The position numbers and the translations under genes were made by a program. This document shows, in pieces, positions 1,084 through 13,295 of a stretch of 64,000 bases of DNA (position 1 is the first letter of the stretch; every line of letters begins with the position of its first letter). This DNA comes from a virus (taxonomy: Duplodnaviria; Heunggongvirae; Uroviricota; Caudoviricetes). The DNA is taken from positions 9,605 through 73,604 of IMG/VR virus record IMGVR_UViG_3300045988_166199, one strand, 5' to 3'. Under the pieces are notes generated by a model. It was given only the letters and a program-made list of their open reading frames with translations, did not search any database and was not told the origin of the DNA.

Positions 1084-1833
1084 GTGAGCCACATGAGCCA
1101 AATCTTTTTTGATACCATTGACAACGACCAGTACGACTTCATGACAGAGTGGAATACCGCTGTTATGGACAAGTGGGTCGCTGAAAACATTGGTTTGTCG
1201 CGCTGCAATGACGAGGCTGAACTCTTCGAGACGAAGTGGTTTGATTACCGCGACATGCATCCTCTCATGGCCACCTGTCTTTTTACGGAGGCATACAAAC
1301 GTCAGTACTCAAATATCATGCTGACGCACGGTCGCGAACACTTTGAAACAGCTCCGTTCACCACCGGGTTAAAACGCCTGCCTTATCAGGAGTTGTCGAC
1401 TGCCAATAAAACGTCGCTATGGAAAGCACGCCAGTTTGCTGATCGCTATTGCTGTTCATACGACTACTTTATCTCCACGGTTCTTTCCGCAGCTGCACGG
1501 CGTCTGTGGGACAAGTTGCCGCGCCCACAGCATTTATGGCAGCCAGAACTGATTGAGATATTCGAAGAGAAATTATCCAGACGCGCAACAACCCGTCTGG
1601 ATGACTCTCTGGTTAGCTTTAAGCATATGGGAGACATGCAGTTCAACCCGATTCAGGAAAGCTATTTTGAGTGGATTCTGGAGCGTTTGCGCATCATCCC
1701 CCGCAGCAAGCGCATACGCGCAATTTTCTCTGCTATCTGGCTAATGGAAATCGTTCCAGAGCGCCTTATTTCCGCCCACTTTCCAGAAGAACTGGAAGAA
1801 GCACGGCGGTTTATTGATCCCCTATCTAATTAA
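1084..1833 (+). CDS. hypothetical protein (249 aa)
   Basis: ORF preceded by the recurrent TAAGTAAGTAACTACCTATC motif; no recognisable domain. Confidence 0.5.
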   Translation: MSHMSQIFFDTIDNDQYDFMTEWNTAVMDKWVAENIGLSRCNDEAELFETKWFDYRDMHPLMATCLFTEAYKRQYSNIMLTHGREHFETAPFTTGLKRLPYQELSTANKTSLWKARQFADRYCCSYDYFISTVLSAAARRLWDKLPRPQHLWQPELIEIFEEKLSRRATTRLDDSLVSFKHMGDMQFNPIQESYFEWILERLRIIPRSKRIRAIFSAIWLMEIVPERLISAHFPEELEEARRFIDPLSN

Positions 1834-1876
1834 CTAATACTAGAAAACAATTTGTTTAAAAAACAAAGGAAAGCAC

Positions 1877-3217
1877 ATGACCGAACTTTGCCATACAGGA
1901 CGCGGGCTGTCCGAAGAGTTTGATGAAGATTTCCAGAACAGACTGACGGCATATTTTTGTCGTGATCACGAGTTTCTTACTCGTGCGGGAGATCTGGTTG
2001 TGCCTAGCCAATTTGCCAATGCGGCCAATGCCATATTGGTTAATATGGTTTCGGGCTATTACCGTATGTACAAGAGCGCGCCTTCTTCATCTGCGATTCT
2101 GGATATGCTTAAGCGCGCGAAACGCGATAAGACCATCCGTGAGGAACTCTTCCCGGATGTTGTTGCTGCGTTTAAGCGCATCCTTGCAGAAAAATTGTCT
2201 GATACCTCGTACATGGTTGACCAGGTATCCACATTCGCAAAAAGTGTAGCGTTTGATGATGCTCTGATTAAAGCTGCTGAACTGAAAGAGAAGGGCGACT
2301 TTCAGGGGGCGATGGCAATCATGGCCAAGGTTCAGCAGATAGGCTCGAACGAAGCGACCGGAATCTATGACTACTACACCTCCGCAAGTGAGCGATTGAA
2401 AGCGCGTGAATATGAGGCTTCAGAGGAGTATGTGCCAAACAGCATTACAACTGGACTCCCTCTGCTCGATAGGTTGCTGTACCAAAAAGGCTGGGCGAAG
2501 CGTGAAATGGTGCTCTTCATGGGGTTCGCTAAATCCGGCAAATCGACCGCAATGGGTGAGTTTTCCATAAACGCAACGCTTGCTGGCTACAATGTTCTGT
2601 ATCTCTCGCTGGAGGTTCACACCACCATTTTATCCGACCGTTTTGATGCAAGATTGTCGGAGACAGAAATGTCCAAGCTGGTGGAACGGCGCGATGAGGT
2701 TCATCGTAAGTTGGCAGAGTTGGGAGCCACGAAGGGGATTGGTAGTTTGTGGGTGGTTGAGCGTCCGTCAGGAAGTATGTCACCGGCAGATCTGGACCGT
2801 ATGCTTAACAGCATGAAAGCCAACGGCATGGTGCCTGACATGGTTGTTGTCGACTACGCAGATTTGATGCGTGCCAGTTATGACCTTCGTGATGATCGCG
2901 CCAACATTCGTAGTATCTACACCGATTTACGTGCTCTTTATGACAAGCATAACGTTGCTGGTATCACGGCGTCGCAAACAAACCGTGAAGGTGGCGCGTC
3001 AGAAGTTGCCACAATGATGCACGCTGCCGACAACATCGAAAAAGTACGTATTGCTGACCTGGTAATAACGATCAACAAAACCGAAGAAGAAGAAGCGAAA
3101 GGAGAGGCTCGTCTCTACTTTGCTGGTTCGCGTAACCAGCAGGGAGGGATCAGCATTCGCGTTAAACAAAACCTCGAACAAATGCGCTTCATTGAGCGAA
3201 TCTTAGACGTTACCTAA
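1877..3217 (+). CDS. DnaB-like replicative DNA helicase
   Basis: Walker A GFAKSGKST, Walker B-like DMVVVDYADLM, SQTNREG motif typical of DnaB/gp4-family helicases; extended RBS context AAAGGAAAGCACATG; immediately upstream of primase. Confidence 0.75.
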   Translation: MTELCHTGRGLSEEFDEDFQNRLTAYFCRDHEFLTRAGDLVVPSQFANAANAILVNMVSGYYRMYKSAPSSSAILDMLKRAKRDKTIREELFPDVVAAFKRILAEKLSDTSYMVDQVSTFAKSVAFDDALIKAAELKEKGDFQGAMAIMAKVQQIGSNEATGIYDYYTSASERLKAREYEASEEYVPNSITTGLPLLDRLLYQKGWAKREMVLFMGFAKSGKSTAMGEFSINATLAGYNVLYLSLEVHTTILSDRFDARLSETEMSKLVERRDEVHRKLAELGATKGIGSLWVVERPSGSMSPADLDRMLNSMKANGMVPDMVVVDYADLMRASYDLRDDRANIRSIYTDLRALYDKHNVAGITASQTNREGGASEVATMMHAADNIEKVRIADLVITINKTEEEEAKGEARLYFAGSRNQQGGISIRVKQNLEQMRFIERILDVT

Positions 3218-3298
3218 AAAATAAGCGTGGAGAACACCTCCACGCTTGATTCATTGGTGAAACAACTTTTCTTTTGCCAAACCACAAAAGAAAAACAC

Positions 3299-4480
3299 AT
3301 GAGCCTTTATGTTATATCAACATTTAGGTTGGTCACAATATTGCCTGTTAAAAGTGGAATTATCGTGAGCGAGCTGAAAGAGCTAATTACCGAATTAGAT
3401 TTTGAACAATGGTTGGATACTGAAGGTATCGTTTATCGACGTGGAGGCGTGAGTACTCGCGGTCGTGAAGTGAATATCAAGGAGTGTCCGGTATGCGGCA
3501 GCTCCAACTGGAAGGTATATTTCAATCTGACCAGTGGCGTCGGTAAATGCTTCGCTGGTGATCATCCCGAAGAGATTCAGTTCAATAAGCTGGTCTTCCT
3601 CAAGCACTACAGCGGTAAATCACGACGACAGTTCGAGGAATATGTGCAGAACGCTCTTCTTTCCCAGGGGTGGGCACCAAAGAAAGAAGAGATAGTGCTT
3701 GCAAGCACAGTCGAGTTAGAGGGACCAGTTGCACTCCCTCGTCATTACGATCTTCCTATAGATGGCCATCTTCCAGACTATCTGGTTGAACGAAATATAT
3801 CGCCTGAAATGGCAAAGTATTTTGACCTACGATACTGCGTCGAAGGCAAGCACGCTTATGTAGATCCGTATACAGATCAGGTTAAAGGACAGATTTTCGA
3901 TATGCGAATACTGATACCGGTTTACGATCTGGATGGGGTAATGAAGACATTTCAAGGACGAGACATTACCGGTACAGCAGAACGCCGCTACCTCTTTCCT
4001 ATGCAGCTTCCAGCTTCAGGTAAGTTTCTCTACAACGGCCACAATGCAGTCGGCAAACAGACTGTAGTTGTCTGTGAGGGGGCGTTCGATGTTATGGGGG
4101 TCAAACGAGCTATTTTTGACGAAGAAACATTACGCGATTACGTGGAACCAATAGGAACGTTCGGGATGCATCTATCTGGTAACACCACTCAGGATGCAGA
4201 AGATCAGTTGGGCGCGTTCCTGACGCTCAAGGCGCGTGGATTACGTAATGTGATCATGATGTGGGATAGTGAAAAGCAAGCTATACGAAACACTATGGCC
4301 GCAGCCAGGCGACTGACCAGTATCGGTCTTAATGTGAAAATTGCATGTTTGGGCGAGGAAGGACTCGACCCCGGCGATGCGACCCCGGGGCAGATTATCA
4401 AAGCCTACTATTGCGCAAAACCTTACTCACGACAGCTTGAACTTTTAAGCAAGGTAAAAGGCATAGCAGCATTAGTTTGA
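3299..4480 (+). CDS. DnaG-like DNA primase (zinc ribbon + TOPRIM)
   Basis: Zn-ribbon CPVCGSS..GKCF; TOPRIM-like VVCEGAFDVMG; start placed at in-frame ATG 3299 preceded by AAAGAAAAACACATG (ORF track starts at 3227). Confidence 0.75.
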   Translation: MSLYVISTFRLVTILPVKSGIIVSELKELITELDFEQWLDTEGIVYRRGGVSTRGREVNIKECPVCGSSNWKVYFNLTSGVGKCFAGDHPEEIQFNKLVFLKHYSGKSRRQFEEYVQNALLSQGWAPKKEEIVLASTVELEGPVALPRHYDLPIDGHLPDYLVERNISPEMAKYFDLRYCVEGKHAYVDPYTDQVKGQIFDMRILIPVYDLDGVMKTFQGRDITGTAERRYLFPMQLPASGKFLYNGHNAVGKQTVVVCEGAFDVMGVKRAIFDEETLRDYVEPIGTFGMHLSGNTTQDAEDQLGAFLTLKARGLRNVIMMWDSEKQAIRNTMAAARRLTSIGLNVKIACLGEEGLDPGDATPGQIIKAYYCAKPYSRQLELLSKVKGIAALV

Positions 4481-5617
4481 ACCAGTATTAGTCACGTACA
4501 CATTGACCGAAAATGATTTAACTTCTGTGTTGAAGTTGTCAGTCATTACCGCGAGGTAGGCATTCTTGGTATCTCTGAATTGCTTCAGGATGATTTGAAC
4601 GTTGTCGGTGCAAACAAACGAGGTAGCCAGATTGCCTCCTTTCTCTGAAAAATCCTTCAGGAAGGTGCAGTCAACTTTGCCATCATTAGCGGTGAAGGTA
4701 GCATCATCACCCTGCCAGGTAAATGTAGCGTTAACGCCCTTATCAATGGATTTAGCAATAAGTCGCTGGGTGGCGGATTTTGTTTTGGCTTTGGAAGCCG
4801 GCGCTCGATATTTGCCGCTTTCTTTCAGTTCTGCAATGTAATCGCAGCCTCTTTTTTCTCCTTTATCGCAAGCAGTCTGATAAAGGTCGGCTGCTTTTTT
4901 ATAGTCCTTTTTTACACCTTCCCCATTCTCATACATAATGCCAAGATTGGTTATGGCGTCGGCGTTTCCAAGTTCCGCTGCCTTTTTATACCACTTAACT
5001 GCTTCTGCATCATTGCGTTTAACGCCTAACCCATCATCGTATAGTATTCCTAATCCTATCATAGCTTCTGAACTGCCTTGGTCTGCCGCCTTTTTGTAAT
5101 AAGTAAAAGCCTTTTTATAATTCTTTTTAACGCCTTTACCATATTGGTAATACGCCCCAAGAACTGAAGTTGCTTTAACATACCCGGCATCAGAGGCTAG
5201 TTTGAAGTATTTAATGGCGAGTGCATGATCTACTTTACCAAGCATCCCCTTTTGATAAATAGCACCAAGATTGTTGTAGGCTCTACCTTCACGAGCATCC
5301 CCCGCAAGTTTGTAGTACTCAACAGCTTTATTTAGGTCTTTATCTACACCCTCGCCAAATGTGTACATAACTCCAAGTGCATAATATGCTACTTTATCTC
5401 CCTTTTCTGCAGCTAGATCAATCCACTTCTTGGCCTCAACTACATCCTTATCAAAACCATTGACACCATCAAAATAATTTGTACCTAACTCACTTTGTGC
5501 TGCGGTATCCCCTGCGGTAGCGGCTTCTATCAGCGTTTGTTTATTGTCTGCGTTAACGAATCCAGAGTTAAAAAGCAAAGTTAATGCCAGCAACGATGAA
5601 GATTTTATGTATTTCAT
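4472..5617 (-). CDS. secreted Sel1-like repeat (SLR) protein
   Basis: N-terminal signal peptide; about 7 tandem Sel1/TPR-like repeats (A.YYLG.MY..G.GV.KD...A..WY.KAA); opposite strand to flanking replication genes. Confidence 0.75.
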   Translation of the reverse strand: MKYIKSSSLLALTLLFNSGFVNADNKQTLIEAATAGDTAAQSELGTNYFDGVNGFDKDVVEAKKWIDLAAEKGDKVAYYALGVMYTFGEGVDKDLNKAVEYYKLAGDAREGRAYNNLGAIYQKGMLGKVDHALAIKYFKLASDAGYVKATSVLGAYYQYGKGVKKNYKKAFTYYKKAADQGSSEAMIGLGILYDDGLGVKRNDAEAVKWYKKAAELGNADAITNLGIMYENGEGVKKDYKKAADLYQTACDKGEKRGCDYIAELKESGKYRAPASKAKTKSATQRLIAKSIDKGVNATFTWQGDDATFTANDGKVDCTFLKDFSEKGGNLATSFVCTDNVQIILKQFRDTKNAYLAVMTDNFNTEVKSFSVNVYVTNTGSN

Positions 5618-9388: not shown

Positions 9389-9677
9389 GAGCAAGTTAAC
9401 TTCTTGGGAATGGTGGTTGGTCACCTATTTCTTAGCGGCCGGAGTCGCATTCGCCTTTTACGTAGGTCAGTTAGTCGTAAAACTGTTGCTGATTAAATTT
9501 GCTAGTCATAAACGTATCGATGATGGTCTGTGGCGTCTTGGCACCCTGGTGGAAACTCGCTACGGGCAACTTAAGGAGAACGAAACCATTACTATCCAAG
9601 CGAAACAATTCACTGCCACCATCACAAGAACACCTAGTCGTAGAGTGGCCTTGATCAAAAAAGTCACAACCGAATAA
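9387..9677 (+). CDS. putative membrane protein (96 aa)
   Basis: N-terminal hydrophobic helix WWLVTYFLAAGVAFAFYVG. Confidence 0.45.
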   Translation: MSKLTSWEWWLVTYFLAAGVAFAFYVGQLVVKLLLIKFASHKRIDDGLWRLGTLVETRYGQLKENETITIQAKQFTATITRTPSRRVALIKKVTTE

Positions 9678-10454
9678 AAATACAATAATAAGTATTTACT
9701 TACCTATCTTTTATGTATAAGATGACTTTGTTTTCGTTGAGACGCGACTGTTTGAACTTAAATACAAGTGCAAACGAAGAAGTCTATCTGGCAGTAGCCT
9801 AATAAGCCAAACACCAGCGAGGTCAGTTTCCAGCCTCGTTACCGAAATGGGACACACTGAGCGAGTGTGATTGCAGAACGCAGGAGGGAACATGAGAGTT
9901 CCCTCCGATGAAGTAACAGAATGGGCGGTCAGTATATTTTCAACTCATATACGACTCCCGGATTCTTAGCCAATGACCGCCCATCCTGTTACGTCATTTT
10001 GTTCAATTATGTCGTTTATACTGGGTTAAAAAGCGGCGACGTAGCCCGGCTGGTATGGTTAGCCAGCACACAACGTTGAGGCCATTACATTTTTATCAAT
10101 TCTAAGGTTCTATTCACAGAGATACCGGCGAGCGTTGATATGTAACATGTTGGGCAAACATTCAATCGGAGTAGTGGCCTCAACGTTGTGAAGACAGGAT
10201 TGTTGTATAGGTTTAACCACTGTTGCCATTAGTGCCTGTTTTCACAACAAATGATTCCATACATCACATTGTATAAATTACAAAGTAGGTGCTGTCCTCA
10301 GAAACATCATCTACTTAAAGATTTTGCCTTCTATTGAGCGAAGTCGAAAACGTCTGGCACTAACGGAAAGTGCCAGTAGCGGTGTGTTTCCTGGCAGAAA
10401 CTAACACCGCCGCGATTGGCACTGTTGAGTAATAAATACTGGCAGTGCTGAATT

Positions 10455-10529
10455 GATGGTGTAGCTCAGCGGTAGAGCAGTTGGCTGTTAACCAACTGGT
10501 CGGTGGTTCGAATCCACCCACCATCGCCA
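10455..10529 (+). tRNA. tRNA-Asn (anticodon GTT)
   Basis: Cloverleaf: acceptor gatggtg/caccatc, anticodon loop ctGTTaa, T-loop ggttcgaatcc, 3' CCA; sequence differs from host asn tRNAs. Confidence 0.8.
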
Positions 10530-10534
10530 ATTTA

Positions 10535-10621
10535 GGGGAGTTAGTCCGTAGAGGTAGCGGGACAGACTGTAAATCTACTGTCATTGCGACTCGGGTGGTT
10601 CGACTCCATCACTCCCCACCA
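10535..10621 (+). tRNA. tRNA-Tyr (anticodon GTA)
   Basis: Acceptor ggggagt/actcccc, anticodon loop ctGTAaa, long variable arm, ggttcgactcc T-loop, CCA. Confidence 0.8.
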
Positions 10622-10625
10622 AATT

Positions 10626-10701
10626 GCCGGTTTAGCTCAGTTGGTAGAGCGCCTGCCTTGTAAGCAGGATGTCAGCGGTTCGAGTCCGTTAACCGGCACC
10701 A
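10626..10701 (+). tRNA. tRNA-Thr (anticodon TGT)
   Basis: Acceptor gccggtt/aaccggc, D-arm tagctcagttggtagagc, anticodon loop ctTGTaa, T-loop ggttcgagtcc, CCA. Confidence 0.75.
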
Positions 10702-10925
10702 ATACAACGATAAGATCATTACGGTTAATCGTCGTTCATGTGCACAATGACTGGTCGAAAGGTAGTGATCTTACCGTTGTGGTGGATTCGCAGACTGATG
10801 CGATAGCTTTCTTGGATGTTAGGGAAATGCGGCCGCAAATCTTCCCTTTCGCGAGCGGTGATCGTCCGTAGTCCTAATTGGCTGCACCGTATGCCGGAGA
10901 TTCAGTACCGGCCACCACAACGGCC

Positions 10926-11012
10926 GGAGAGTAGGGAGCATGGTGCTCAAGCGGTCTTGAAAATCGTCCCATTGTGCAAACGATGATGGTTCGATTCCAT
11001 TACTCTCCGCCA
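10926..11012 (+). tRNA. tRNA-like gene with long variable arm (possibly tRNA-Ser, anticodon TGA; atypical D-arm)
   Basis: Acceptor ggagagt/actctcc, T-loop ggttcgattcc, CCA end; anticodon stem weak and D-loop short, so isotype uncertain. Confidence 0.5.
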
Positions 11013-11167
11013 GACACAGCGTTGAGCGGTTTGGCCTTTTAATCAACTCGATTAAGACTCCGCTAACATAAACCAGACCGCTCAACGCTGTGATTGACAA
11101 TTACGGCAGACGTTCTTAACCATAGCTTGCTAACATCCTAGCAACACTTTTTTTCAGCGCAATATTC

Positions 11168-11190
11168 AAAGGGGCTTCGGCCCCTTTTCT
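11168..11190. terminator. hairpin terminator (bidirectional)
   Basis: aaaggggc ttcg gccccttttct. Confidence 0.5.
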
Positions 11191-12402
11191 TCAAAAAAGT
11201 TTTATAAATTCATAATTCTGGTCAATTAAGGATTCAATACACACCATGCAAAAATCTACATCGTTAAAATCAGGTGTGTAATATTCATCCTCATAACATT
11301 CATTTAGACCTTCAATCAATTTTTCTTTAAAAACTCCCCACGTTTCAATATGAACCATTTCCATATAAGGCGCATGTGTATGTACTTGCAATACATCCCA
11401 GGTGTCTATAACCTCGATCCGCGGCTTGCAATTAATTTTTTCTAAATATGCCCTCCCAGAATTGTAAATTTTCGACATTGATGCCCCAAAACCTGATGGT
11501 TGGTAATGAGTGTAAATGTCATAAATTTTTTGTCCTATTCTAGGGAGTTGAGAAGCATTGGATATTTGTGGCGAATGAAAGTATCGCTCTATGGAAGAAA
11601 ACGCAGAAACATTAACTAGAGTAATCGTATATGGTGCTAAAGTTCTCTCGTTCAAATTTCTACATAAAATAGCAAACCCATGGCTATTAGTCTTTTCACC
11701 GTCTGAGGACATTTTTGCCATGCTGGCTTTAATAACATTCAATTTCGAATGTAAACGAGAAGTGGAAGTCGGTTGATTATACATTTCATCATCATACAAA
11801 CATATATGAAACCCGCCAAGATGACGAAATGAGAACTTGAGTGCTTCTTCCGCAATAACTAATTTATTAATATCTAAAGGAGTAAGTGATACGTTACCTT
11901 GTAAATCATAGCAAGGTTCTAAACATAGAAAGTTTTTCTTCTGCCACACGATCATATTAAAAATAAAGTGTCTAACCAAAGGTGGCCAGTCAGGTGATAT
12001 AAGTACATTGGTAATATCTCCATCAGACAAGTATGACAAGTAACTTTTTAGTTCCGCAGCATATGCCACTAGCTCAGTTCCAGCTTCCCTTGTTGGTGTT
12101 GAAAAATTTTTTAACTCAATAAGAACTAAGGATTCATTCTCTGTTGAATAAGCAACGACATCAGGTCTTAATATCTCAGATTTTGTTGCTGAGATATTCT
12201 CATCATCTGTCATTAAATGTAACAATGTTATGTTCTTTAAACAAAACTGATAACTCTCCTTAATTTTTTTCTCTTCGGGTCTTTTCGGATTAAATTCATT
12301 TAATTTATCAATATTGATGATTGAATTATATAATCCATCTTGATCAGATAATTTGTCAATTATCCAATTTTGCATTTCCTTTTCGCTTAAAAATATTGAC
12401 AC
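11191..12402 (-). CDS. hypothetical protein, downstream partner of Abi-like gene (403 aa; AbiGii-like size; possible PD..(D/E)xK-like motif)
   Basis: Co-directional, 26-bp spacing from upstream gene; AT-rich codon usage; segment ILRPDVVAYS...LVLIELK compatible with a nuclease-type D...ExK motif (inference only). Confidence 0.55.
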   Translation of the reverse strand: MSIFLSEKEMQNWIIDKLSDQDGLYNSIINIDKLNEFNPKRPEEKKIKESYQFCLKNITLLHLMTDDENISATKSEILRPDVVAYSTENESLVLIELKNFSTPTREAGTELVAYAAELKSYLSYLSDGDITNVLISPDWPPLVRHFIFNMIVWQKKNFLCLEPCYDLQGNVSLTPLDINKLVIAEEALKFSFRHLGGFHICLYDDEMYNQPTSTSRLHSKLNVIKASMAKMSSDGEKTNSHGFAILCRNLNERTLAPYTITLVNVSAFSSIERYFHSPQISNASQLPRIGQKIYDIYTHYQPSGFGASMSKIYNSGRAYLEKINCKPRIEVIDTWDVLQVHTHAPYMEMVHIETWGVFKEKLIEGLNECYEDEYYTPDFNDVDFCMVCIESLIDQNYEFIKLF

Positions 12403-12428
12403 TAATTAGGCTCCCGTTAAACCAAAAA

Positions 12429-13295
12429 TTAAAAATCTTGCTTTACTTTATCCATGGTCAGAATTTTGCTAATAATTGAAGATTCAAATCCATCTAAACC
12501 TGAGAGAAAGTTAATTAGCTTTTGGATATGTTGTTCTTTAGGTATAAGTATATATTTTATATCATTGAACTCAAAATCAATGCCAAACTTTGAAAATTTT
12601 GAGCTAATTTTTGCTTTGTCATCAGAAGTGATAACACGCTCCAAACTCAGACTAGGCCATAAATCACCAATAAAAGGAGCTGGCACATAACGCCACTCTT
12701 TCTCGTCTGCATATATATAATTCTCTATTGTTTTATTATCTTTTCGCTCTAGCTTGCCTCTGTAATTTTTCATATAACGCAGTAAATTATATAGATCAGA
12801 ATATTCTGCTTTCAATTTCTCAAACTCTATTCTGTTTTTGGTATCTAAATTTCCTCTAGCCTTCCAAAGCGGCACCAACTTATTTTTAATAAGTCGAATT
12901 CTGGCATTGTATTTAGAAAATATTTCACTACTCTTATTCATATATAGAACTGGGTGTAGACCTTTCTTTTCCGCCCAAGACTTAGTTAGCCCAAGACCGA
13001 ATTCTCCATATTTTCCGCTATGATCTCTGATTTGTGATAGTTTTATGTCACAAAACGATACCATTGGTACTGCAAACCTCCTGCGTCCCCCGACTCCTCT
13101 TATTTCCTCGCGAGCAAGAAATGGTTTAAAATATTTCTCAGCCAATATGCTATAGAAAGCATCTTCGTTTTTTGTAAAATGAAACAACGTGGTTGGATGA
13201 AGACTATAAACAGATTCAACATTCGCATCAGGATTTTCAAGGATAGTCATTTTACACCTTGTGGAAAGCCAGTTTAGTTCTGTAAATAGTATCAC
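12429..13295 (-). CDS. abortive-infection-like protein (AbiGi-like, 288 aa)
   Basis: Motifs LFHFT, VPMVSFCDIKLSQ, YGEFGLGL.K.WAEKKGL.PVLY resemble AbiGi-type proteins as recalled from memory; AT-rich; first gene of a two-gene operon. Confidence 0.55.
   Translation of the reverse strand: MILFTELNWLSTRCKMTILENPDANVESVYSLHPTTLFHFTKNEDAFYSILAEKYFKPFLAREEIRGVGGRRRFAVPMVSFCDIKLSQIRDHSGKYGEFGLGLTKSWAEKKGLHPVLYMNKSSEIFSKYNARIRLIKNKLVPLWKARGNLDTKNRIEFEKLKAEYSDLYNLLRYMKNYRGKLERKDNKTIENYIYADEKEWRYVPAPFIGDLWPSLSLERVITSDDKAKISSKFSKFGIDFEFNDIKYILIPKEQHIQKLINFLSGLDGFESSIISKILTMDKVKQDF

Follow-up and report, generated by a model that had tools for sequence, protein, structure and literature searches.

Background

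In Escherichia coli, the leader-trailer helices of rRNA and the hairpins that follow the tRNA metY in the metY-nusA-infB operon are precedents for RNase III processing, and 3'ETS-leuZ, the terminator-containing trailer of a tRNA precursor, binds Hfq. RNase III accommodates about 22 bp of double-stranded RNA (dsRNA), and its in vivo sites have been mapped near tRNAs in intergenic regions (PMC6212723). Large structured non-coding RNAs (ncRNAs) of phages and prophages, GOLLD and ROOL, often lie by tRNA islands and sometimes have tRNAs embedded in them (PMC12286853). As for transfer-messenger RNA (tmRNA), a 2014 survey reported no case of its gene, ssrA, from the plasmid projects that it searched, and the only phages with it were mycobacteriophages and Bacillus phage G (PMC4131195).

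Here we analyzed a 64,000-nucleotide stretch (hereafter the window) of the Caudoviricetes record IMGVR_UViG_3300045988_166199 (positions 9,605 to 73,604), in which four long hairpins, A to D, accompany a tRNA cluster. These hairpins are a conserved, strand-specific RNA helix family, standing at the boundaries of tRNAs and tRNA-like RNAs within a structured operon free of open reading frames (ORFs). Processing helices in polycistronic stable-RNA operons are of an already known kind. What is new is the repeated, sequence-conserved, modular form, the tight coupling to the ends of tRNAs and tRNA-like RNAs, and the spread over P1-like, SSU5-like, lambdoid and Ackermannviridae phages.

Architecture of the tRNA operon

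The window comes from an SSU5-like phage-plasmid, and the host organism of the closest plasmid is E. coli. Over the locus, identity to the E. coli plasmid NZ_CP073997.1 was 100%. For Escherichia phage CMS-2020a an identity of 97.5% was obtained, and for the Salmonella phage SSU5 one of 74%. The ORF-free, non-coding tRNA operon occupies about 9730-11190 of the + strand (about 1.45-1.5 kb), with all four hairpins on the tRNA strand. In + strand order, a possible weak promoter is followed by a structured leader with A and B, the tRNAs Asn, Tyr and Thr, hairpin C, an element that we call X, tRNA-Ser, hairpin D and two terminator-like hairpins. The features are the following:

9695..9723, + strand: candidate sigma-70 promoter TTTACT-17 nt-TAAGAT, weak and putative, read from the sequence
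9770..9805, + strand: SsrA-like tag reading frame, ANEEVYLAVA and two stops
9908..9997, + strand: hairpin A, 24-bp stem and 42-nt loop, a diverged family member
10069..10190, + strand: hairpin B, 20-bp stem CACAACGTTGAGGCCATTAC/GTAGTGGCCTCAACGTTGTG and 82-nt structured loop
10185..10450, + strand: shorter hairpins clustered between B and tRNA-Asn, the first at 10185-10248
10455-10529, + strand: tRNA-Asn(GTT), ARAGORN and Rfam tRNA hits
10535-10621, + strand: tRNA-Tyr(GTA), ARAGORN and Rfam tRNA hits
10626-10701, + strand: tRNA-Thr(TGT), ARAGORN and Rfam tRNA hits
10699..10785, + strand: hairpin C, 24-nt arms and 39-nt loop, beginning at the CCA of tRNA-Thr
10779..10924, + strand: element X, a tRNA-shaped scaffold RNA of 146 nt that resembles STnc100
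10926..11012, + strand: tRNA-Ser(TGA), ARAGORN and Rfam tRNA hits
11015..11092, + strand: hairpin D, 20-bp stem and 38-nt loop with the conserved motif GACTCCGC
11131..11192, + strand: two terminator-like hairpins closing the operon, TTGCTAACATCCTAGCAA plus T7 and GGGGCTTCGGCCCC plus TTTTCTT, read from the sequence

Four long hairpins confined to the tRNA locus

The arms of A (24 nt; 9908-9931 and 9974-9997) are 92% complementary across a spacer of 42 nt, those of B (20 nt; 10069-10088 and 10171-10190) 95% across 82 nt, those of C (24 nt; 10699-10722 and 10762-10785) 83%, and those of D (20 nt; 11015-11034 and 11073-11092) 95% across 38 nt. Folded as + strand RNA, they gave z-scores of -6.8 for A, -5.9 for B, -4.5 for C and -8.5 for D, and none of 200 shuffles folded as well. 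The leader taken as a unit (9730-10454) reached -8.5. In a census of the whole window that counted Watson-Crick stems of at least 18 bp, with at most two mismatches and a loop of up to 130, exactly four were recovered, namely A, B, C and D, against a mean of 0.17 in 30 dinucleotide shuffles of the 64 kb. The exact core CACARCGTTGAG was found in the window only within these arms. The upper stem of A reads GGGCGGU/ACCGCCC, then A, and the right arm of C overlaps the closing stem of X.

The first-pass annotation had proposed three inverted repeats, and all are present with slightly shifted limits (A 9908-9997, B 10069-10190, D 11015-11092). The common core that it gave, CACA(A/G)CGTTGAG, is likewise correct and occurs without mismatch only in these arms. 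Its description of the repeats as flanking the tRNA cluster can be made more precise: A and B lie upstream of tRNA-Asn, C sits inside the cluster after tRNA-Thr, and D follows tRNA-Ser. The shorter intervening hairpins that it mentioned are real between B and tRNA-Asn and are largely conserved in relatives: several of those at 10185-10450 were found in the alignment of SSU5-like loci, and the first, at 10185-10248, has GTTGTG in common with the right arm of B. It had overlooked hairpin C, the tmRNA-like tag, the STnc100-like RNA and the fact that the hairpins adjoin tRNA ends exactly.

Alternative pairings are also possible at this locus. In B as in C, the right arm ends in a GTTGTG that can pair with its own left arm or with a CACAAC further downstream, which lies in the hairpin at 10185-10248 for B and in the closing stem of X for C. 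The structures are mutually exclusive, 10185-10198 against 10171-10190 in the one case, and 10774-10785 with either 10699-10711 or 10912-10923 in the other.

One family, conserved as RNA helices of the tRNA strand

Judged by their arms, A to D are one conserved hairpin family with the pattern CACAACGNTNAG...CTNANCGTTGTG, as the first-pass annotation had supposed, the family being larger than it thought, with four members in the window. B, C and D have arm sequence in common, the arms of C being 80% identical to those of B in the repeat-family comparison. The link of A to the CAACG family comes from P7, where the hairpin that aligns with A has CACAACAGGTAAGGGCGC as its left arm.

The folding and covariance checks that had been suggested turned out in favor of RNA: besides the strong + strand z-scores, pairing is maintained by compensatory changes and G.U wobbles mark the tRNA strand. 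We compared orthologues from SSU5 and from Klebsiella, Salmonella, Enterobacter and Yersinia plasmids, and found three covarying pairs in B, two in D and nine in A, which is kept in all SSU5-like relatives and in P7. In B, for instance, GGCC/GGCC alternates with GACC/GGTC and GATC/GATC, with a U.G wobble on the + strand, and in D GAGCGG/CCGCTC with GAACGG/CCGTTC. We next built an arm alignment from 27 distinct copies, which represent several phage lineages. In this alignment 95% of the cells were paired, a figure that is partly circular because the copies were gathered as already paired and are related by descent. Compensatory change affected 10 of the 20 pairs, and the covariation score was 0.41, against 0.18 in shuffles (0 of 500 reached 0.41) and 0.05-0.08 when the partners were slid.

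Regarding the strand, 18 of the 27 copies have a U.G wobble at pair 17/28, and 15 of the 27 are mismatched at pair 8/37. In copies oriented by tRNA direction alone, G.U exceeded A.C by about 19 to 4, and the tRNA strand folded better in 25 of 32 copies. The conserved wobble, the G.U excess and the folding bias together indicate a transcript of the tRNA strand, and formally the same evidence could also be compatible with single-stranded DNA of that strand.

Hairpins abut tRNA ends and delimit exchangeable modules

Hairpin C starts at the CCA of tRNA-Thr, and D two nucleotides past the CCA of tRNA-Ser. The window was considered together with 13 loci related to it, from SSU5-like plasmids, P7 and a P1-like phage. 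At no fewer than 17 tRNA-hairpin junctions the stem began 0-2 nt after the CCA, whichever the tRNA, with locus L128 as the single exception. In relatives, D lies 1-2 nt after the last tRNA of the array, be it Ser or Asn (again except in L128), and C-type hairpins come after Asn in Klebsiella and after Thr in P7 and P1-like phages. In prophages it is the 3' arm of the family hairpin that abuts X at its first base or tRNA-Arg(UCU) at position +1. The lower stem (CACAACG.T.AG / CT.A.CGTTGTG) is a common leader-trailer linker, attached to a tRNA or tRNA-like RNA at its 3' or its 5' end, and the upper stem and loop are exchangeable modules.

The same arrangement varies from relative to relative. 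Cyrano is devoid of tRNA-Tyr, C and X, locus L126 carries a pair of C-type hairpins, and the C-type hairpin of L127 is a hybrid. P7 and D6, otherwise unrelated to this plasmid, have a Thr-C-X-Ser block with 92-95% identity to its own. The indel junctions between relatives coincide with direct CACAAC motifs, and the conserved base of the stem therefore also serves as a recombination linker. As visible in these comparisons, it is through the stem bases that tRNA, hairpin and small-RNA modules are gained, lost and exchanged between unrelated phages.

The putative role of the helices in processing

We favor the reading that the hairpins are RNA-level leader-trailer spacer helices of a polycistronic tRNA and small-RNA transcript, probably RNase III substrates whose cutting releases these RNAs, and we give it a rough probability of 0.55. 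The host RNase III would cut the near-perfect 20-25-bp stems, or the stems would serve as processing or insulating helices. Cutting would separate tRNAs and small RNAs from one another and, in P1/P7 and prophages, would also part them from the downstream mRNA. Leftover short trailers would be trimmed by exonucleases, 5' ends would be made by RNase P, and stable hairpin RNAs would remain as products. The hairpins agree with RNase III substrates in length, their stems having 19-24 bp and at most two mismatches, and in place, as they stand between the mature RNAs of a polycistronic precursor. From these 20-25-bp stems we infer RNase III-type cutting or another processing or insulating role.

Several points weigh against this reading, besides the partial circularity of the pairing figure. 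The RNase III role is read from stem length and position alone, tRNA maturation in E. coli is normally independent of RNase III, and a helix that abuts the +1 of a tRNA should be an obstacle to RNase P, not an aid. In the window, the - strand of hairpin A folds better. Moreover, the sequence of the lower stem, the mismatch at pair 8/37 and the U.G wobble are conserved beyond what pairing needs, and this excess hints at a sequence-specific partner or at concerted evolution, not at a generic dsRNA signal. Finally, loop motifs are conserved within lineages, GACUCCGC in D and AUCCCGG or CUCCCGG in A, which suggests that the hairpins have a function of their own.

Element X

Element X consists of a 7-bp closing stem (GTGGTGG/CCACCAC), a D-arm-like hairpin 2-3 nt further on, a hypervariable center and a T-arm-like hairpin abutting the 3' strand. 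We recognized five distinct X variants on one scaffold, with five covarying pairs and a cloverleaf-like topology. The slot that follows the family hairpin holds tRNA-Arg(UCU) in some prophages and an STnc100 match of 43 bits in P7, and the lytic Klebsiella phage Magnus carries X plus a separate bona fide STnc100 (52.9 bits). STnc100 and PasD are Hfq-bound base-pairing prophage sRNAs with variable seeds (bioRxiv 10.64898/2026.05.13.724894). Like X, STnc100/PasD (RF02076) has a GGUGAAU, a hairpin, a variable region, a CCGG-type hairpin and a CACCA; unlike this locus, the RF02076 model does not include the family hairpins. The X of the window was not detected by RF02076 even at E = 10 (gathering score 47 bits), and the likeness is drawn from the common scaffold, not from an Rfam score.

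Possible small RNAs released from the tRNA transcript

Among the alternatives, the hairpins could be functional sRNAs released as by-products of tRNA maturation, in which the stem is the scaffold and the loop gives specificity as antisense seed, sponge or decoy, for instance toward factors of the host or of a rival phage. This is a tentative proposal that we hold to be unlikely, and it has several observations on its side: a conserved scaffold carries hypervariable tips and loops that are exchanged as modules, motifs are conserved by lineage in the loops (GACTCCGC in all D orthologues, ATCCCGG or CTCCCGG in A), and the neighbor X has the scaffold of the Hfq-bound sRNAs STnc100 and PasD. Precedents exist in the E. 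coli 3'ETS-leuZ sponge and in the stable RNAs C and D of the T4 tRNA cluster. However, matches to the loops in the 64-kb window were not above chance (10-12 nt, and none for GACTCCGC or CTCCCGG), and loops that range from 23 to 137 nt across the family, many with nothing in common, are also what relaxed constraint would give. A resemblance of CACAACA/GUUGUG to the target consensus and seed of GcvB (PMC4104026) was judged coincidental, as both partners are locked in the stem.

An SsrA-like tag frame and the tmRNA question

Because of sub-threshold tmRNA hits in Magnus, we examined 9770-9805, which reads GCA AAC GAA GAA GTC TAT CTG GCA GTA GCC TAA TAA, that is, 10 codons for ANEEVYLAVA and two stops. 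This frame has the features of a tag: a GCA resume-type codon, an AN(D/E) start, a hydrophobic/Ala end and a double stop. It is a solid observation, and the tags compare as follows:

This window: ANEEVYLAVA
SSU5 and pMT1: ANEDTYLAVA
L130 (E. coli plasmid): ANEDAYLAVA
Klebsiella plasmids: ANDNQYLAVA
P7: ANDDLMMAAA
P1-like phage: ANDDLMMVAA
Magnus: ANDDVVLMAA
E. coli ssrA, fetched for comparison: ANDENYALAA and two stops

All seven homologous variants have 10 codons, with residues varying in mid-tag and no conserved start codon, and upstream indels of +1 and +2, which are not multiples of 3, break any longer frame through the tag. The tag is conserved in three phage lineages (SSU5-like, P1/P7 and Ackermannviridae). 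In IMG/VR we found at least 12 distinct phage-type tags, none called as tmRNA by ARAGORN.

Whether these frames belong to a functional phage tmRNA is a hypothesis to which we give little credit. More specifically, hairpin A and perhaps X could be the acceptor part of a non-canonical tmRNA, with the helices as substitutes for P2 or pseudoknots that shield the 5' side from RNase P, and we regard this arrangement as rather improbable. It draws on the constancy of the 10-codon length and of the GCA AAC GA start across the three lineages, on sub-threshold hits of the tmRNA models over the tag in all three (E = 0.01-0.9), on ARAGORN picking the same tags when its threshold was set at 80%, and on a long hairpin 110-150 nt past the tag wherever one was detectable (most family members examined). 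Like tRNA-Ala and tmRNA, the SSU5, pMT1, Klebsiella, Enterobacter and P7 copies of hairpin A have G.U as the third pair of their top, which reads GGGCGGU/ACCGUCC and then an A73-like A. Against it, the third pair is G-C in the window lineage, and the model scores (15.3 and 14.4 bits in the window, 26.5 in Magnus, 21.5 in P7) are far below the gathering thresholds of 47-84. At default settings ARAGORN found no tmRNA at the locus, and its low-threshold tRNA-like domains disagree from locus to locus. No canonical tRNA-like domain, conserved T arm or encoded CCA was found, the sequence reading A-UCC. The tag of L128 is frameshifted by a 1-nt deletion, and tblastn with an SmpB query sequence found no match in the window. 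In addition, the tag lies outside the hairpin and not within an acceptor-closed domain, a topology unknown for tmRNA.

Hairpin A was rejected as a full tRNA-like domain, since its T-arm-like UUCAACU loop exists only in the window lineage and not in the SSU5 and Klebsiella copies. In this lineage the loops of A and D (9932-9973 and 11035-11072) have TCAACTC(N6-7)GACTCC in common, a small hairpin with a UUCAACU-like loop followed by GACUCC. The T loop of E. coli tmRNA is UUCAACU, and the A loops of SSU5 and Klebsiella do not have the small hairpin.

A broader form of the hypothesis takes the locus for an unrecognized phage translation module, in which a non-canonical tmRNA-like RNA would be made from the tag template and an alanine-minihelix-like or tRNA-shaped acceptor (A and/or X); this seems doubtful to us. 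We think it similarly doubtful that, within such a module, this RNA would be co-transcribed with the tRNAs and with STnc100-type sRNAs, the CAACG hairpins being architectural or processing helices. If it were true, P1, SSU5, pHCM2-/pMT1-type plasmids, Stx-phage relatives and lytic Klebsiella phages would mark stalled proteins of host or phage anew with tags of their own, of a degradation or a non-degradation type, and a functional tag frame could be a new class of viral ribosome-rescue or protein-tagging RNA.

Antitermination, DNA elements and coding capacity

The helices might also shield a long untranslated early transcript from Rho, or carry boxA-like Nus antitermination signals. We consider this very unlikely. 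It would suit the roughly 1.4 kb of almost fully structured untranslated RNA, the place of the P1/P7 locus as leader of the C1-controlled ban operon, the position of the mEp460-type locus after the repressor gene at the head of the early-left operon, and the presence in some right arms of GCTCTTAC or GCTCTTAA, the boxA cores of lambda nutR and nutL. But boxA works single-stranded (PMC2800207) and is here locked in a 20-bp stem, the arms of the window are degenerate at this place (GATCTTA in C, GGCCTCA in B, CGCTCAA in D), and Rho-shielding explains neither the abutment to tRNA ends nor the conserved sequence. As a candidate in its own right, a boxA site with a single-stranded GCUCUUA core was rejected, the match occurring in some relatives only and always paired. 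Right arms with GCTCTTAC or GCTCTTAA are found, for example, at 2700-2718 of P7 (L005), 1676-1693 of L126 and 6965-6987 of L086; these matches are base-paired and probably coincidental.

We find it hardly credible that these are DNA-level elements (MITE-like palindromes, attC-type recombinase sites or hairpins for single-strand initiation in the replication of the phage-plasmid), for the terminal inverted-repeat shape, the presence/absence polymorphism among relatives, the palindromic core CAACGTTG in B and the fact that G.T wobbles are tolerated in single-stranded DNA, the strand bias alone being compatible with a one-strand DNA hairpin, are set against arms that covary as pairs, a constant spacing of 0-2 nt to tRNA ends, an orientation that is always that of the tRNAs, no target-site duplications, no copies outside the tRNA locus, no attC features or integron integrase, and indel junctions in direct CACAAC repeats, as homologous recombination predicts. 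Thus, of the candidates offered by the first-pass annotation, both RNA-processing signals and processed ncRNAs fit, and MITE-like palindromes do not. A MITE was rejected on its flanks, which have no direct repeats (A CTCCG/TTTGT, B CAGCA/AAGAC, C CCGGCA/ATTCGC, D CCAGA/ATTGA), on the confinement of the exact core and long hairpins to 9908-11092 in the 64 kb, and on arms that covary (10 of 20 pairs) with strand-specific wobbles, instead of being one fixed transposase-binding sequence; presence/absence differences are attributed to recombination between direct CACAAC motifs. An attC site was rejected on stems that are near-perfect, without bulges or R and L boxes, and on a right arm GTTGTGA unlike GTTRRRY, and no integron integrase was noted among the ORFs and the annotated relatives examined. 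Intrinsic terminators were rejected as well: the stems have 19-24 bp and loops of 38-82 nt, the terminator scan did not call them, and B, C and D have no U tract, TTTGTT following the stem of hairpin A only.

The earlier statement that no ORF explains the region was upheld. In relatives, stops or frameshifts break up the overlapping ORFs at 9921-10079 (+), 10110-10229 (-), 10360-10584 (-) and 10819-11100 (-), two neighboring control ORFs upstream being intact, and coding was rejected as an explanation.

Operon boundaries and neighboring genes

The block with the promoter candidate is conserved among SSU5-like relatives, and in the alignment the conservation of the leader starts just downstream of it. 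With 8 of 12 matches, the candidate at 9695-9723 was not called by a consensus promoter scan. At the other end, the second terminator-like hairpin (GGGGCTTCGGCCCC) looks bidirectional, and it was missed by the terminator scan, probably through extension of its stem into A/T tracts. An AbiGi homologue (288 aa; PADLOC E = 5e-47, Pfam PF10899) lies within 11191-13295 on the - strand, converging on the tRNA operon. Beside it, in the same interval and likewise converging on the operon from the - strand, is a 403-aa AT-rich ORF with no family match, possibly an AbiGii-like partner. Relatives hold AbiH, PhoH, Gp49 or other cargo at this place, which points to a variable accessory or defense island.

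Distribution

The locus was matched in 1331 PLSDB plasmid records, including Yersinia pestis pMT1. A prophage version (leader, a 70-nt hairpin, then X or tRNA-Arg) was matched in 2944 of 5426 complete E. coli genomes; mEp460 and Stx2 phages are among its carriers. There were also 150 matching phage records. In K-12, where the CPS-53 prophage was examined, the element was absent. The phages and plasmids bearing the family comprise P1/P7, SSU5/pMT1-type plasmids, E. coli prophages and lytic Klebsiella phages, and a stricter pattern placed it also in Rahnella, Pantoea, Erwinia, Ewingella and Citrobacter. In Magnus the version is 3 kb long, with several extra hairpins of 21-27 bp, and underlies a run of annotated ORFs of 30-45 aa. 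Rfam 15 covariance scans of the locus, the prophage copies, P7 and Magnus (E up to 10) gave only chance-level hits over the hairpins, and full-text literature searches returned no description of these hairpins or of a P1/SSU5 tmRNA-like RNA.

Some of these loci deserve separate mention. In the Y. pestis plasmid NZ_CP009989.1 (pMT1, L134; 1601-2107), the homologous locus ends directly after hairpin B, and caf1R with the F1 capsule operon occupies the place of the tRNAs and later hairpins of relatives. In P7 (L005, AF503408), an unannotated tRNA-Ser(TGA) was found at 3105-3191, and the 650 nt from the C1 operator Op(ban) to tRNA-Asn (1860-2505) are a leader with a terminator-like hairpin at about 2010-2040, the tag frame and an A-type hairpin. 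The Magnus region (L152, MN045230; about 1650-4880, upstream of tRNA-Met/Arg) is annotated as some ten ORFs of 30-72 aa, which are probably spurious; it contains the leader and tag, a family hairpin around a degenerate class-II-tRNA-like core, X and the STnc100 of 52.9 bits. Hypothetical coding sequences antisense to the tRNAs or to the hairpin/X region, likely mis-annotations, are CYRAN_40 in Cyrano (L001, 4931-5143) and mEp460_036 and mEp460_037 (L138, 2985-3538). The Salmonella plasmid pSTM_Phi (L131) has an extra mini tRNA-like element at about 1355-1425, just before tRNA-Asn (GGGAGTT...GTGAGGTTCGATTCCTCAGCTCCC); its T loop is canonical, its acceptor-like stem has 7 bp, and ARAGORN does not report it.

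Significance and comparison with known systems

P1/P7, pMT1, pHCM2-/SSU5-type phage-plasmids and common E. coli prophages carry an overlooked, kilobase-scale conserved ncRNA locus, whose annotation is blank or consists of spurious small ORFs. The hairpin family is a signature for module boundaries, which explains the shuffling of tRNAs and small RNAs between unrelated phages, and it gives candidate processing sites for the release of phage tRNAs from early transcripts. There is also a link to anti-defense work, in which phage tRNAs are studied as a counter to tRNA-cleaving defense systems.

The tag frame of the window has the length and pattern of the E. coli tag ANDENYALAA, with a GCA resume codon and double stops as in tmRNA (SsrA). 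It differs from tmRNA, including two-piece forms and the tmRNAs of cluster-C mycobacteriophages, in that a canonical tRNA-like domain, T arm and CCA were not found here, and in the order of the parts. With GOLLD and ROOL, RNAs of unknown function, the locus has in common a structured ncRNA beside phage tRNAs. It has no Rfam match to them, is a string of separable modules and not one ornate fold, and belongs to Enterobacterales. The T4 tRNA cluster, with its stable RNAs C and D (species 1 and 2), likewise contains small structured RNAs of unknown function co-transcribed with phage tRNAs, and T4 RNA C resembles X in its oversized tRNA-like fold with a canonical T arm. There is no sequence similarity, however, and T4 has neither a repeated family of long-stem hairpins nor a tag frame. 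As with 3'ETS-leuZ, the trailer of a tRNA precursor could here act as an RNA on its own, but the stems are much longer, repeated and without U tracts.

The leader-trailer helices of rRNA and those of metY are like the hairpins described here in having stems of at least 20 bp at stable-RNA boundaries, flanks that pair and covariation. In contrast to them, the hairpins of this locus form one sequence-conserved family, with several copies per operon and across unrelated phages; their loops, of 23-137 nt, are hypervariable and usually do not enclose a mature RNA, and their cleavage is putative.

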